Shown here: piece by piece, positions 5,982-63,724 of the stretch
Layout: every line of letters starts with the position of its first letter
Position numbering within the stretch: the first letter of the stretch is position 1
Origin: a bacterium
Lineage (GTDB): Bacteria; Patescibacteriota; Minisyncoccia; Minisyncoccales; JAGGSE01
DNA: 64,000 nt
Direction: 5' to 3'
NCBI GenBank assembly: GCA_021159225.1
Contig: JAGGSE010000232.1
Coordinates: forward strand, 23,015 to 87,014
Made by a program: the position numbers and the translations under genes
The notes under the pieces: model-generated
Seen by the model: only the letters and a program-made list of their open reading frames with translations
Told to the model about the DNA's origin: nothing
The model's database searches: none

Positions 5982-7121
5982 ATGGAACTCGTAGAGTTTA
6001 AGGGTCGTAAAGGAATTTGGATTACTTACAAGGGCCGCAAGATCTTTATCCCTGAGGAAAGAATTCATCAACGAGAGTTGGGGTCACGTTCCCGTCTTGA
6101 TCCAAAGATGAAAGTCCTCGGAGGTATCACTTTAGCAACTTTAGCCGCTTACTTTTTAAAACCCGGTACGCCCATTTCTGAACTTTTTCGCAATAAAAGG
6201 TTTGTCGTGATCGCTAAACACCCAAATCCCACTCCCTCAATGAGAGAGAAGTTTTATGACATGATCACGTCGGCAATAATGGGGATGCGTGTAGTTCGTC
6301 CCAAAGCGGGCGCTAAACTTCCCAAAACTGCAGGCGTTGTTCATACCTGGTCGAAAGAAGCCTTTAAGATGAAACTTCCTAAGATTCAAGACTATGACTT
6401 GATGTCTGCTATTGACGATAAAGCGGTATTTCCAAAGCTGTTCAAGGACGACCCTAAAATTGTTCCTCAAACCTTCTTACTTCGTGAGTTTCACAGTCTT
6501 GAATCCGCACGCTATGCGTTCCAACGTGCTGGGAAGGGATTTGTGATTAAACCGCGCATTGGCTCACTTTCGAAGGAACTCCCTACTCATGAGTGGAGTG
6601 ACAAACGTTTGATGAAATATATTGAACAGCACGGTGGTCCTAATAATGTGATCATACAAGAAATGTTACCTTTTAGAAATGAGTTTCGTGTTCACTATGT
6701 GAATGGGAAGGTTTACTCTATTACACATCGTCGTTTTCCTGATCCTTTCCGTAAAATTTACAATAAAATCTTTTATCGATTCGGAATGGAGGGTGGTTCT
6801 TCTATTCCAGTGCTCAACCCTGTGAAACGTAAACGACTTAAGGAGTTTGTGACTCAAGCTATGAAACTATATGAGAAGAACGCCCATGTAGGGTTTGACA
6901 TCGTCGAATTACCTGACGGTTCCTTCCGATTTATTGAAGGAAACCCTGTTCCAGGTAGTTTAATGAACCCTGTTATTGCCAGGAAGTTACACAAGACTGT
7001 CACTGGAGTATGGACTAATGACTTACGCGCCGTTGCTCTAGCTGGAGGCGCGGCGGGTTTATGGTGGGCAGGAGAAGGAGTTTCCGAAGTACGGAAGAAG
7101 GAGAAGCAGCTGTGGGTGTAG
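5982..7121 (+). CDS. ATP-grasp ligase (RimK/GshB-like) with N-terminal WITYKGRKIFI motif and hydrophobic segments
   Basis: ATP-grasp signatures are FVIKPRIGSLSK, VIIQEMLPFRNEFRVHYVNGKVYSI and GFDIVELPDGSFRFIEGNPVPGS. Hydrophobic stretches are GGITLATLAAYFL and AVALAGGAAGLWWAG. Confidence 0.65.
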   Translation: MELVEFKGRKGIWITYKGRKIFIPEERIHQRELGSRSRLDPKMKVLGGITLATLAAYFLKPGTPISELFRNKRFVVIAKHPNPTPSMREKFYDMITSAIMGMRVVRPKAGAKLPKTAGVVHTWSKEAFKMKLPKIQDYDLMSAIDDKAVFPKLFKDDPKIVPQTFLLREFHSLESARYAFQRAGKGFVIKPRIGSLSKELPTHEWSDKRLMKYIEQHGGPNNVIIQEMLPFRNEFRVHYVNGKVYSITHRRFPDPFRKIYNKIFYRFGMEGGSSIPVLNPVKRKRLKEFVTQAMKLYEKNAHVGFDIVELPDGSFRFIEGNPVPGSLMNPVIARKLHKTVTGVWTNDLRAVALAGGAAGLWWAGEGVSEVRKKEKQLWV

Positions 7122-7495
7122 GAAAACACGTGTTGATTGACGTGTTTGAGGTGCCTTTTGAAGTTTTAGATAATGAGAAGTTGGTTCTTCAGTGTTTGAT
7201 TCGGGCCGCTAGTAAGGCCGGCGCAACCATACTTCATTCATTCGTTCATCATTTTGAACCTCACGGGGTAAGTTGTGTGGTTGTGATCTCTGAGTCTCAC
7301 TTTTCTATCCATACTTGGCCTGAACGACTTTACGCGGCCGTTGATTTGTTCACTTGCGGCGATTCCGTTGATTTAGATGTAGCGGTTCAGGAGATTCTTC
7401 AGTTTCTTAAAGGTAATCCTAAAGTTTTAGTCTTGGAGAGGGGGGATGTACATGATCGCCGATTGGGGACTTCACCTGATTTTAGATTTGTATGA
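7112..7495 (+). CDS. speH: S-adenosylmethionine decarboxylase proenzyme, small bacterial/archaeal class
   Basis: AAGGAG lies 9 nt before GTG 7112. GKHVLIDVFE...VVVISESHFSIHTWPERLYAAVDLFTCG contains the Glu-Ser self-processing site and the HTWPE and FTCG signatures. Confidence 0.8.
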   Translation: MGVGKHVLIDVFEVPFEVLDNEKLVLQCLIRAASKAGATILHSFVHHFEPHGVSCVVVISESHFSIHTWPERLYAAVDLFTCGDSVDLDVAVQEILQFLKGNPKVLVLERGDVHDRRLGTSPDFRFV

Positions 7496-7823
7496 TTGTG
7501 ATGAGTTCCTTATTTCTAGTAAGGGCAAACTTAGGGAATTCGTATTCGAACTTTGTGATATTCTTGATGTGAAAAGGTACGGTGACCCTATAATTGAGTG
7601 GTTTGGTAACGGCCCTTCTGAAGGATACACTCTTGTTCAGTTAATAGAGACGTCTCTGGTATCAGGACATTTTGCTCCTTCTAGCCGGACTGCTTACATT
7701 GATGTGTTTAGTTGTAAATTTTTTGACCCGATTAAGGTTCAGGAGTACATTGGAGGTTTCTTTAAAGCTAAGAAGGTTGATTCTACCCTTCTTGAAAGGG
7801 GGTCGAAGTTACGTGAAGTATAA
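7446..7823 (+). CDS. AdoMetDC-like paralog with altered processing site
   Basis: It aligns by eye with the upstream gene: GLHLILDLYDC...LVQLIETSLVSGHFAPSSRTAYIDVFSC...LLERG. ES-SH is replaced by ETS, and HTWPE is lost. Confidence 0.6.
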   Translation: MYMIADWGLHLILDLYDCDEFLISSKGKLREFVFELCDILDVKRYGDPIIEWFGNGPSEGYTLVQLIETSLVSGHFAPSSRTAYIDVFSCKFFDPIKVQEYIGGFFKAKKVDSTLLERGSKLREV

Positions 7824-9230: not shown

Positions 9231-10229
9231 GTGAAATTTAGAGTCCCTCCTGAGTGGATTGAGAAATGGATTACCAAGGGCGGACGTAGAGTTCCGATTA
9301 TTAAAAAGGAGTTCCGCCAAGCTTTCTTGTGGACTTTCGCCTTTGCCAGGAAGTCTCCTCTTCGAGTTGTTGACTCCCGGTCTATTAATGAAACGCTAGA
9401 AGGGGCGGGCTTCGAGACTTTTAGGTTTCTCGAGAACGTTGCAGCGCCTCATCCCGAAGTCCGCAGGAAAGTCCTTCCTCAGGCTGATGCATTTTTGAAT
9501 TTTTTTATTGGGAGTGCTGAGAGTGAAAGAGCATTTCGTAATGTAAGTTTATCCTTTCATCGTTATACGTCGTCTGCTCCAATAGGGTGTTATGTTGATG
9601 CCTATATTCTTAGGTCGACGGGGAAAATTGAAAGAGAGCTCACACAACAGTGCCTTGAACAATTTTCCGCAAATGATCGTGTCCATCTCAGACACGTTCT
9701 GGGAATTACTCTTCCTAAGGTTCAAAGGGTTCCTTCTGAGGTTAAGGATCTTGCTGAGTACGCGTTTCCGCAAGGATCGGGGGCTATTAGTATGCTAGTG
9801 TACTCCCCTAGGCGGCGTGATGTTCCTTATGATCTTACTTTTCTCCATGAATGCTGTCATTTTGTTCAGAGTCAGCTTGCTACTCGGGCTCCTGATTATT
9901 ATGTAGAATTTGGTCGAAGTGTTTATGCTCCTTACCTTCAGAGAGTTTTGCCTGAAGCTGTACAGCTCTTTCAGCAAGCTACTAAGCATTATGGTTCGGT
10001 ACGCCCTTCAGTTAGGCGTAATTTTGTGAGGTTGCAGTTTTATCGGGCTTTAATGGACGACCCTTTTAACACGTCCGTGATATCAATTCCCAGCCTTCAA
10101 AGTCCAGAAGAGGGCTTTTCTGAGGCTTTTTCGCTTTTTGCACATTCAAATCTTCAGCATCGTAGGTTTCTTAGACTTAAGTGGCCTGAGGCACGTGACT
10201 ATTTTGCTACTTTGGAAGGAGTACTGTGA
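9231..10229 (+). CDS. HExxH zincin-like protein with N-terminal WITKGGRRVPI motif
   Basis: AAGGAG precedes GTG 9231. FLHECCHFV (HExxH) is followed about 85 aa later by EEGFSEAFSLFA. The portal fusion C-terminus shows the same HExxH...E.F.E.F arrangement. Confidence 0.5.
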   Translation: MKFRVPPEWIEKWITKGGRRVPIIKKEFRQAFLWTFAFARKSPLRVVDSRSINETLEGAGFETFRFLENVAAPHPEVRRKVLPQADAFLNFFIGSAESERAFRNVSLSFHRYTSSAPIGCYVDAYILRSTGKIERELTQQCLEQFSANDRVHLRHVLGITLPKVQRVPSEVKDLAEYAFPQGSGAISMLVYSPRRRDVPYDLTFLHECCHFVQSQLATRAPDYYVEFGRSVYAPYLQRVLPEAVQLFQQATKHYGSVRPSVRRNFVRLQFYRALMDDPFNTSVISIPSLQSPEEGFSEAFSLFAHSNLQHRRFLRLKWPEARDYFATLEGVL

Positions 10230-61957: not shown

Positions 61958-62114
61958 TATAAAATTTTCTTTTTCCACTACAACGAACTTACCCCACACC
62001 CTCGGGTATAACTAAGTATAGGTTGAGCGTTACCTGCGATTTAAGTGCCAAAGGTATGCGCACTTCTGGGCTAAAAATCGATTTTTACAAGCAACTGAAG
62101 ATCACGTCTCCCCC

Positions 62115-62143
62115 TTGCTTTTACGACACGTTAACGTAATAAT
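62115..62143 (+). promoter_or_regulatory. promoter candidate in the 265-nt gap
   Basis: TTGCTT (62115-62120), a 17-nt spacer and AATAAT (62138-62143). The -35 context CCTTGCTTTT matches the box at 24446-24454. Confidence 0.3.
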
Positions 62144-62222
62144 CACTATTGACATCCCTCTTTGCTTAGAAAGGGAGAAACCTTGCAGACTTGAAATTAG
62201 GTAAAAACTTAGGAGGAAGCTT

Positions 62223-62408
62223 GTGAAACAAACACGAAAAGTCAAGGTATTTGATCTCTCGAGGTTGATCGACGACGAGTGGATTCACAAGGCTCCACAT
62301 GAAGGAGTTCCCTTTACTACGTTGATAGGCGACGCTATTTCGCTGACTCCTATCTCAGAAGCGCGTCTGCTACGTCGTAAACTCAAGAGAAGGGAGAGGA
62401 GGAAATGA
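62223..62408 (+). CDS. small hypothetical protein
   Basis: AGGAGG lies 6 nt before GTG 62223. The 61-aa product has a basic C-terminus. Confidence 0.4.
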   Translation: MKQTRKVKVFDLSRLIDDEWIHKAPHEGVPFTTLIGDAISLTPISEARLLRRKLKRRERRK

Positions 62409-63724
62409 ACTACTTTCGCACTTCTTTTTTCCACAAGATTCGCAACAAACTTTTCAGGATCTACTTGAATGGAAGTGGAGAAGAGGGTGTCTTCATTACA
62501 AAGGGAGGTCGGAGGATATTCCTAAAGTTAAAGTCCAAGGGAGCTCGCGTCAACGAGCAACGTGTTAAATACTGGATGGATAGAATTGACGAAGTAGGAC
62601 TATACAAGCTGGTAAAGGATCGTAACTTTAAAACCTTCTTAGGGAACACAGGAAAATATGTACATCCTCTCTTCTCAGAACTATATCGTACTTGGCCAAA
62701 CAAACAGGATAAGTTGTGGTATAGGAAGTTGATCGAGAACTGGCATTGGAACCGTTCTAGAGCTAGGGATACTCTACAGAAGCTAGTTTCTGGGGAACTT
62801 AAGAACCCTTTTTGGGATGAAGTATCCGCACTGAACAGGGCACTTTTGCTAAAAGAGTCTAAGGAACTACCTCGTATTACTTTGTACAGAGGTGTGTGGG
62901 TTTCAACCCCTTATTCGCCAACCTACGCGCACCATATGATCCAGTTTTTTGCAGACTTAAAAGAGATGCAACTCAACCCACAGAAGTACATTCTCAAGGA
63001 CTTCCCGTTCGCATCTTTTTCAACCCTTCAAAGTCAGGCTCAGAAGTTTGGAATGGTCGATCACGCCAAAATCCCTGTCTCCCGTATTGTTGGGCACTAT
63101 AGGATTGGTTTTGGTTCAACAAGAGAGAAGGAATTTATCGTCCGTACATCGTACAGGAGAGTTCCTGAGTTAATAACACGGGCAAGTTCGAGTTTAAAGA
63201 GCGCGAAGAAGTGGCCGGACATACAGTATTCCCCACTCCCGGAGACCGCTACTAGAGTTTACAGGTTTAATAGAGAAGTGTTCTCTGAAGTACCTTTTCG
63301 GAGGAACTTCGCTTTTCGCGAAATTCGCCTAGTAACACACGCGGGTGACACTGATTACGTAGCGGGCTCCCACCGCATTCACTACGTAACACTTCAATTT
63401 AACAGCGCGTTCTATGACCGAACAAAAACGTTTTTAGAATCCATGCAAGTCTTAAACAGGGAATGGGTGTTTTACGTTAAGAATCGAGACGACGCCCTCG
63501 AACTCTACTCAACTTTCTGTGATCAACTGACTCGCGGCCGTAGCCGTGATCTTGTTTCCAACATCCCCAAAGTAATTGATCGAGTTACGAAAAACTACGA
63601 CTTAGAGTGGTATTTTGCAATTCCAACTACTCCTAAGAGTCTGCTCACGTCTCCATTTAGTACTACCAAAGACACGACGCACGCTTTTTACTTCGCCTCA
63701 AGGGATATACTCAAACCCTTCTAA
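62405..63724 (+). CDS. ADP-ribosyltransferase-like protein (R-S-E class) with N-terminal FITKGGRRIFL motif
   Basis: ITLYRGV supplies the Arg, FASFSTLQS the STS-like turn and REKEFIVR the ExE, with about 45 and 40 aa spacings. The layout resembles C3/VIP2/Alt-type ARTs. Confidence 0.55.
   Translation: MNYFRTSFFHKIRNKLFRIYLNGSGEEGVFITKGGRRIFLKLKSKGARVNEQRVKYWMDRIDEVGLYKLVKDRNFKTFLGNTGKYVHPLFSELYRTWPNKQDKLWYRKLIENWHWNRSRARDTLQKLVSGELKNPFWDEVSALNRALLLKESKELPRITLYRGVWVSTPYSPTYAHHMIQFFADLKEMQLNPQKYILKDFPFASFSTLQSQAQKFGMVDHAKIPVSRIVGHYRIGFGSTREKEFIVRTSYRRVPELITRASSSLKSAKKWPDIQYSPLPETATRVYRFNREVFSEVPFRRNFAFREIRLVTHAGDTDYVAGSHRIHYVTLQFNSAFYDRTKTFLESMQVLNREWVFYVKNRDDALELYSTFCDQLTRGRSRDLVSNIPKVIDRVTKNYDLEWYFAIPTTPKSLLTSPFSTTKDTTHAFYFASRDILKPF

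Follow-up and report, generated by a model that had tools for sequence, protein, structure and literature searches.

The window analysed here, 64 000 nucleotides in length, corresponds to positions 23015-87014 of C1, a 96.9-kb contig in a metagenome-assembled genome (MAG) of 1.2 Mb and 239 contigs; C1 is a tailed phage with nearly all its genes on one strand. The gene at 62405..63724, on the forward strand like its parts and the small upstream ORF located below, encodes a protein of 439 amino acids (aa) which is most probably an NAD-utilising enzyme of the ADP-ribosyltransferase (ART) fold. By its sequence it would belong to the R-S-E clade as a strongly diverged member, whose nearest relatives are the Alt/VIP2-type ADPrib_exo_Tox domains that many phages carry. 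The protein consists of an N-terminal tag, a helical region, an ART-like core and a C-terminal region. A preliminary description of this stretch had already proposed an R-S-E ART-like region on the basis of three strings, ITLYRGV, FASFSTLQS and REKEFIVR, and had noted that a fourth, FITKGGRRIFL, is shared with an ATP-grasp and an HExxH protein. The open reading frame (ORF) and all the quoted strings are indeed present (residues 158-164, 202-210, 240-247 and 30-40, respectively), and the start codon is supported because M1, Y3 and F4 are invariant in homologs. Our results support the ART call as correct, for a protein that appears to lie beyond the reach of standard tools.

The comparison of profiles carries this assignment. 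T4 ModA, ModB and Alt were fetched as comparators together with 13 Alt-family domains from GenBank phages and 72 domains from viral contigs; searching for homologs with T4 Alt as seed added no diversity, since every sequence returned was at least 96% identical. Against Alt-only profiles the target family scored 24.6, then 27.4 (P 0.004-0.001), always with an alignment anchored on SALNRALL...ITLYRGV, and hhalign runs against T4 Alt alone, a 14-sequence Alt family, ModA/B and a 45-sequence Alt family gave P values of 0.001-0.2, which are suggestive. The Alt-only test is of little power, because ModA/B, which are proven ARTs, scored only 24.5 and 33.7; ModB did no better than the target against these comparators. 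The tripeptide VST (residues 166-168), picked as the S-T-S motif by the Alt-only alignment, was rejected: it stands 4 residues past R162 and is not kept in the distant homolog P0003. A scan seeded with the most divergent hits yielded 80 compact ART domains from uncultivated phages, and 10 of the 10 domains sampled as a check were PF03496 above the curated cut-off. Two deeper comparators were used, a 102-sequence profile (effective number of sequences, Neff, 8.1) and A5, which holds 57 compact PF03496 domains and no Alt. With the full-length family alignment (A1), the score was 37.5 against the 102-sequence profile (probability 68.9%, P 4.5e-5) and 46.5 against A5 (91.2%, P 1e-6); with the cropped alignment (A3) it was 37.8 (84.5%, P 7e-6, 90 columns) and 47.1 (93.9%, P 1.6e-7), respectively. 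P0003 alone scored 38.0 and 44.4 (the latter with a probability of 90.5% and P 1.4e-6), and the window protein (P0001) alone 27.9 and 31.2. The positive controls ModA and ModB, taken singly, scored 58.3 and 54.4 against the 102-sequence profile and 61.9 and 56.8 against A5, and a ModA/B profile reached 69.7 (97.3%) against the former. As a null, 678 other ORFs of the same genome (200-700 aa) reached at most 28.0 against the 102-sequence profile and 26.0 against A5; column shuffles of the target profile gave maxima of 20.5 (400 shuffles) and 28.4 (300 shuffles), and the reversed profile scored 10.3. The match remains significant after allowing for about 1100 ORFs and four comparators. The target score climbs with the diversity of the comparator (24.6, 27.4, 37.8 and 46.5), and so does that of ModA/ModB (24.5, 33.7 and 69.7).

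The alignment with A5 covers 92-93 columns, spans residues 137-246 (62813..63142), the ART-like NAD-binding core, and is co-linear. The elements follow each other in the order pre-Arg helix (SALNRALL), Arg strand (ITLYRG), FPFASFS, helix QAQKFG, IPVS turn and E241-K-E243-FIV. The candidate catalytic and NAD-binding arginine, R162 (AGA codon, 62888..62890), falls on the invariant Arg of the comparator, R48, and F202-x-S204-x-S206 falls on F-x-S-T-S. S204-F205-S206 (63014..63022, with S204 at 63014-63016 and S206 at 63020-63022) is thus the candidate S-T-S motif; S72 is nearly invariant in A5, and the middle residue is Phe in the target and Thr in the comparator. QAQKFG lies on the next A..F helix and I-P224-V-S on the h-P-x-G turn. 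The candidate [QE]-x-E catalytic motif, E241-K242-E243 (63125..63133; E241 codon 63125-63127, E243 codon 63131-63133), is aligned with the two invariant Glu of A5, E127 and E129. The preliminary description had the order of the motifs right; its spacings of about 45 and 40 residues are to be replaced by 42 (R162 to S204) and 39 (S204 to E243). The match is significant over the NAD-binding half, which extends from the pre-Arg helix through the helix after S-x-S, and it is for this N-terminal half of the ART core that homology is statistically supported. Residues ~137-246 would form the NAD-binding half of the fold: the first strand would carry R162 and the second S204-x-S206, and E243, together with E241, would provide the catalytic Glu. 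In the mechanism proposed, NAD+ would be held by R162 and S204, nicotinamide would be expelled, with E243 stabilising the oxocarbenium intermediate, and ADP-ribose would be moved onto a host macromolecule. The C-terminal region (residues 247-439, 63143..63721) does not match the ART profile significantly when taken alone and presumably comprises the remaining ART strands followed by a lineage-specific domain.

The candidate residues also stand out by their conservation. An exhaustive phmmer search over 1.84 billion representatives, two word-indexed searches, scans of viral and metagenome contigs and a search of 400 genomes of the phylum revealed two lineages only. The first one is made of the window protein, which is also found on contigs of up to 187 kb, and of relatives 83-90% identical to it (P0002, L026 and L027). 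The second one is P0003, a 428-aa protein 34-38% identical to the window group, whose gene adjoins a DNA ligase gene on small metagenome contigs. In the viral-contig scans, single-sequence seeds matched only themselves. The family-invariant residues are R162 (in TLYRG), S204 and F205 (in DFPFxSF[ST]) and E243, I245 and V246 (in GFGxTxxxExIV); position 206 is S or T across the family, P0003 reading F-S-S-F-T where the window protein has F202-A-S204-F-S206. P0001 and P0003 are 34% identical overall; the figure is 56% for the tag module, 57% for the stretch around the Arg strand and 38% for residues 196-250. Within the enzyme region, conservation is highest in the Arg-strand blocks. In the C-terminal region identity drops to 12-28%, with 12% for the final 140 residues; P0003 has no counterpart of the last ~60.

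Several results weigh against the ART assignment, and the first concerns the motifs themselves. Using 14 Alt-family sequences together with T4 ModA and ModB, we derived one position-specific scoring matrix each for the Arg, S-T-S and E-x-E block and sought the best ordered chain under spacing limits. The target chain scored 21.4 bits, at exactly the three sites of the preliminary description. This value is reached by 3.5% of target shuffles and ranks about 11th among 1110 ORFs, which is chance level; only the Arg block, of the three, is unusual (top 1%), and P0003 does not reproduce the three-motif chain. Since the chain score is at chance level, the motif argument alone is not evidence, and the ART claim becomes significant only in combination with conservation and deep profile-profile comparison. 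Secondly, scans of the family members with Pfam, PHROGs, PADLOC and NCBIfam at E <= 10 returned nothing relevant. With hmmscan, no match to PF03496 (curated cut-off 23.4 bits) was obtained for P0001, P0002 or P0003 even at E = 10, and PF03496 likewise had no match at E <= 10 in the entire genome translated in six frames. PF18760 (ART-PolyVal) had no match at E <= 10 over the whole genome either; because both models are unmatched, the family lies outside PF03496 and PF18760 as curated. PDB sequences, searched by phmmer and with the family profile, gave nothing relevant. Thirdly, AlphaFold2 models were unusable, whether made for the full length from a 3-sequence alignment (mean predicted local distance difference test score, pLDDT, 34.7) or for residues 84-300 from a 5-sequence alignment (mean pLDDT 36.7). 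With a pLDDT of ~22-30 in the putative catalytic region, they provide no structural support for the split beta-sandwich of ARTs. Finally, the half of the core after S-x-S (after residue 217) has no significant match alone, the family profile is shallow (Neff 1.5) and homology is carried by ~90 columns.

Taken to its end, this line of argument would mean that the protein is not an ART and that its similarity to ARTs is convergent or accidental, with another fold and function. No database match at any level, no predicted fold, three motifs that alone are at chance, and homology resting on some 90 columns of so shallow a profile speak for it. However, it would have to account for profile-profile P values of 1e-6 to 1.6e-7, for a score of 46.5 where the null maximum is 26-28, for two 34%-identical homologs that match independently in the same register, and for the four comparator-invariant catalytic columns, all of which are met by family-conserved residues. 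We therefore regard it as improbable. The proposal of an R-S-E ART-like region thus stands on profile-profile probabilities of 91-94% and on the placement of the catalytic residues on invariant columns of the comparator, and not on the motifs from which it was first drawn.

The remaining points against the ART assignment concern the acceptor side. The preliminary description read EKEFIV as the E-x-E turn, and this holds to the extent that E241 and E243 fall on invariant Glu of A5 and that E243 is invariant in the family. However, E241, the first Glu, is kept in P0001 and P0002 and is Val in P0003, so that only the second Glu is invariant, within a half that is not significant alone. In addition, the L-P-R-G turn that follows E-x-E (L132, P133 and R134 are nearly invariant in A5) is absent: the target reads E-F-I-V-R-T-S and P0003 E-H-I-V-F-A-P. 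Lastly, the greedy alignment obtained with P0003 alone favours a different position, KEVEDVTLPLGAPFRV (E-x-[ED], KEVEDVTLPLG), ~60 residues downstream of the equivalent of E241-E243. This block, at P0003 residues ~317-332 (about 2881-2928 of locus L001), is a good match to the canonical ART block E-x-E-V-I-L-P-R-G-x-x-F-x-V. Its counterpart in the window protein, residues 289-299 (63269-63301), reads REVFSEV--PFRR, with a six-residue deletion and without L-P-x-G. The downstream block could be the true catalytic site of P0003, or a remnant. As regards the family, E243 is more likely to be the catalytic Glu than the downstream site, because it is invariant and stands within a conserved block.

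The E-x-E motif usually accompanies arginine-specific protein modification, and mono-ADP-ribosylation of an arginine in a host protein would be the default expectation. The divergent acceptor side would leave room for an NADase or for an activity directed at nucleic acids. According to this alternative the protein has the ART fold, but it is an NAD+ glycohydrolase with water as acceptor, or an ART modifying DNA or RNA (or performing RNAylation, as T4 ModB does), rather than an arginine-specific protein ART, and host NAD+ would be depleted or redirected, or nucleic acids would be marked, in the course of infection. The first position of [QE]-x-E helps determine acceptor specificity, and it is precisely this position that varies, from E in P0001 and P0002 to V in P0003. 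Moreover, it is in the acceptor-side half, beyond S-x-S, that the match to the protein-targeting PF03496 domains fails, L-P-R-G included, and ART-fold NADases and nucleic-acid ARTs are documented (PMC9503650) and provide a precedent. Against it, the closest detectable relatives are protein ARTs of the Alt/VIP2 type, R, S and the catalytic E are all kept, as in transferases, and no sequence feature positively favours NADase or nucleic-acid specificity. We consider such chemistry unlikely, though it deserves to be kept in mind, and we retain arginine-directed protein modification as the default expectation.

The other distinctive part of the protein is its N-terminal beta-rich module (residues 1-45, 62405..62539), which holds the hairpin motif EGVFITKGGRRIFLK (residues 27-41, nucleotides 62483-62527) and is followed by a helical linker (residues 46-135, 62540..62809; AlphaFold2 helices at 51-64 and 88-131, with a pLDDT of 55-77, the one region where confidence was moderate) for which no family match was found. 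Formulated as [WFY]-[IV]-T-x(1-3)-G-[RK]-[RK]-x-[FP..]-[ILVF], the hairpin tag occurs in six ORFs of C1, compared with ~0.05 matches expected per shuffled proteome, and is thus non-random; elsewhere in the 1.2-Mb genome the pattern is found only twice, both times in implausible places. The sharing of the motif with an ATP-grasp and an HExxH protein, pointed out in the preliminary description, is therefore confirmed and extends to three further ORFs. The ATP-grasp-like ORF (5982-7121 of the window) carries WITYKGRKIFI, and its R2K ATP-grasp matches are sub-threshold. The HExxH ORF (window 9231-10229) carries WITKGGRRVPI and reads HECCH...EGFSEAF. The three other carriers are on C1 downstream of the window. 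Two are tandem HExxH paralogs of 283 aa each (C1 90981-91832 and 91858-92709, i.e. 5982-6833 and 6859-7710 of locus L006) with HEFGH...EGFAEEF, one of which has a weak ATLF-type zincin match in Pfam (E 0.001, below the cut-off); the three tagged HExxH proteins have in common an SP.EGF[AS]E block resembling a third ligand. The last carrier is a membrane protein of 339 aa (C1 87456-88475; L006 2457-3476), the sole tagged protein in which the tag is not N-terminal: it is found at residue ~205, just before ~100 hydrophobic, Ala/Gly-rich residues. A hidden Markov model (HMM) of the tag matches exactly these six ORFs with E values of 1e-10 to 4e-13, figures that are circular since the model was built from the same six.

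In the homologs, the tag occupies the same position in P0002 and P0003 as in the target (residues 30-40), and a related phage locus, L004, has six copies of it. The phage of P0003 carries a second tagged ORF, GIWVTVRGKRIFITLKK (minus strand of L001, motif near nucleotide 323; also in L002), from which it follows that the tag system predates the split of the two ART-like lineages. The hairpin module (residues 1-45) is most likely a portable address tag taking its cargo to a common destination. A 574-aa protein of the representative library, P0004, was set aside as a family member, being a repeat protein that matches only the N-terminal 50 residues. It contains four copies of a ~130-residue unit, the start of which, PIKIRNSSYDQVM..GMYISEDGRCCIRAQKS, matched target residues 11-60 with an E value of 1.6e-6; it looks eukaryote-like, and the match may be due either to chance or to a distant relationship with the N-terminal module.

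At this point we may propose what the common destination could be. The tag would bring the ART-like enzyme, the ATP-grasp protein and the zincins to one place, the leading candidate being packaging in the virion, followed by injection along with the DNA. Head-packaged ARTs are a documented theme, which includes T4 Alt and the MuF-ART fusions (PMC9503650), and phage polyvalent proteins, as the summary in the same article of the work of Iyer, Burroughs, Anand, de Souza and Aravind (2017) presents them, contain effector domains among which are ART, zincin-like metallopeptidase and R2K-type ATP-grasp domains. Going by this summary, the same effector repertoire is found here in one phage, but as separate polypeptides that each carry a short copy of the tag and are spread over two genome arms, instead of as domains of one giant protein. 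The phage also encodes an S78 prohead protease.

Nevertheless, several findings argue against delivery by the virion. The head module, with a portal-like giant ORF, the S78 protease and an HK97/SU10-type capsid protein (~14.5-24.4 kb), lies at ~14.5-25 kb of the window; the ART-like gene is outside it, ~39 kb downstream, after genes of the tail-fibre type, and a convergent gene comes next. There is neither a MuF or portal fusion nor T4-like synteny, the gene has its own intergenic region of 265 bp, and the tag HMM has no match in the portal-MuF, protease or capsid proteins that the phage encodes. For these reasons we put virion delivery of the ART-like protein forward tentatively, as quite possible and still short of probable.

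The same findings can be read in favour of a protein made and used inside the infected cell, unpackaged, with a tag serving to assemble a complex of the six proteins or to recruit them to the membrane. T4 ModA and ModB, which are not packaged, would be the models. The position of the gene in an accessory arm well away from the head genes, and its own upstream intergenic region, fit this proposal, as do a tag found internally in one carrier, just before hydrophobic segments, and the lack of tag copies in the portal-MuF, protease and capsid proteins. A cargo set of ART, ATP-grasp and zincins does not fit it, as this is the repertoire of virion-embedded polyvalent proteins, in so far as these are summarised in PMC9503650. 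We hold a purely intracellular role to be possible and rather doubtful. A more elaborate version of virion delivery may be considered as well, in which the phage would have an 'unbundled' polyvalent effector: at least six separately encoded proteins (the ART, an R2K ATP-grasp ligase, three zincin-type peptidases and the membrane protein), each with a hairpin tag of ~12-25 residues, would be co-injected into a host with a very small genome, of the candidate-phyla-radiation type. A small basic partner would silence or chaperone the ART up to the time of delivery, and the non-canonical acceptor side, with no L-P-R-G and a variable first Glu, would give it a new target specificity. In its entirety this scenario is speculative, and we think it unlikely.

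The small basic partner just evoked is the product of a 61-aa ORF (62223..62408) immediately upstream, the TGA of which overlaps the ATG of the ART-like gene as ATGA. Homologs of this ORF lie directly upstream of every family member: 61 aa before P0002 (L004 4800-4985) and 47 aa before P0003 (L001 1793-1936; also L003). They have in common a DL..I.D[DE]WI..P core and a Lys/Arg-rich tail, and the ATGA coupling exists in both lineages. Being conserved and coupled in both, the small ORF forms with the ART-like gene a two-gene cassette. Its co-translated product would be a conserved partner of the ART-like enzyme, possibly an inhibitor, a chaperone or an adaptor. The cassette is preceded by the 265-bp non-coding stretch mentioned above (61958-62222), which is among the few sizeable intergenic gaps and contains a strong AGGAGG ribosome-binding site. 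A consensus scan of this stretch found no sigma-70-type promoter, and a promoter and terminator scan around the cassette found nothing exceeding shuffles. In the neighbourhood, downstream of the window, we also observed an NAD-dependent epimerase/dehydratase gene with an intein insertion (Hint and Intein_splicing matches) at C1 88547-90688 (L006 3548-5689), which is kept in the related phage locus (L004 9146-11290). As for the host, the MAG carries a transfer-messenger RNA, which marks it as bacterial, and the genomes of its phylum are of 0.5-0.9 Mb; the assignment is tentative, because binning contamination is 8.8%.

How does the protein compare with known phage ARTs? Compact phage PF03496 domains on uncultivated viral contigs are often described as MuF head protein fusions. 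The window protein shows the same motif order and register (pre-Arg helix, [LF]-[YF]-R-G, F-x-S-T-S followed by the A..F helix, h-P-x-G/S and E-x-E-h-h-h) and a similarly compact spacing, but it has S-F-S instead of S-T-S and lacks L-P-R-G, and the N-terminal helix Y-x-G-x-x-Y-x-x-I-N-x-x-L-R is not recognisable. It also differs from them by an extra C-terminal region of ~190 residues and by a hairpin tag in place of the MuF fusion. T4 Alt is likewise a phage R-S-E ART, has an identical ITLYR at the catalytic Arg and, like the window protein, possesses an N-terminal element apart from the catalytic domain; the annotation of Alt describes this element as processed. In contrast to the window protein, Alt is 682 aa long, with a ~70-residue S-to-E spacing and a PF26846 domain, and against the Alt family alone the match of the window protein has a P of ~0.004. 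The T4 capsid targeting sequence shows no relation to the tag. Alt, an NAD+:arginine ADP-ribosyltransferase, is packaged in the head and injected, a route that is only proposed for the window protein. T4 ModA and ModB resemble the window protein as small phage R-S-E ARTs with a short distance from the pre-Arg helix to the Arg (16-18 residues), and in ModB QLYRGI and REQEWMIP correspond to TLYRGV and TREKEFIVR. They differ by their spacing, R-24/28-S-67/70-E compared with 42 and 39, and by ART profile scores of 54-62, compared with 31-46 for the window family. The protein would thus represent a new and very divergent ART family within a known clade. Its architecture is unusual in combining a hairpin tag, a helical linker, an ART core and a C-terminal region, with a small partner encoded by a coupled gene.

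The biology that this implies is to be expected for phages, an ART effector being of a known kind, with the exception of the tag system. Phage ARTs, which redirect transcription and translation in the host, count among the most frequent effectors delivered by virions; to our knowledge, nearly all those described are recognisable with standard models. The present family was missed by Pfam, PHROGs, NCBIfam, PADLOC, PDB sequence searches and AlphaFold, and yet it could be linked to the ART superfamily by a purpose-built profile. This suggests that viral 'dark matter' still conceals members of well-known effector classes, and that profiles built for the purpose are a recipe to find them. We know of essentially no takeover mechanism described for phages whose hosts have very small bacterial genomes, and the phage encoding this ART-like protein was binned with such a genome. 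Finally, as one of six tagged proteins, the ART-like enzyme would offer an NAD+-dependent labelling read-out for the destination of the tag.

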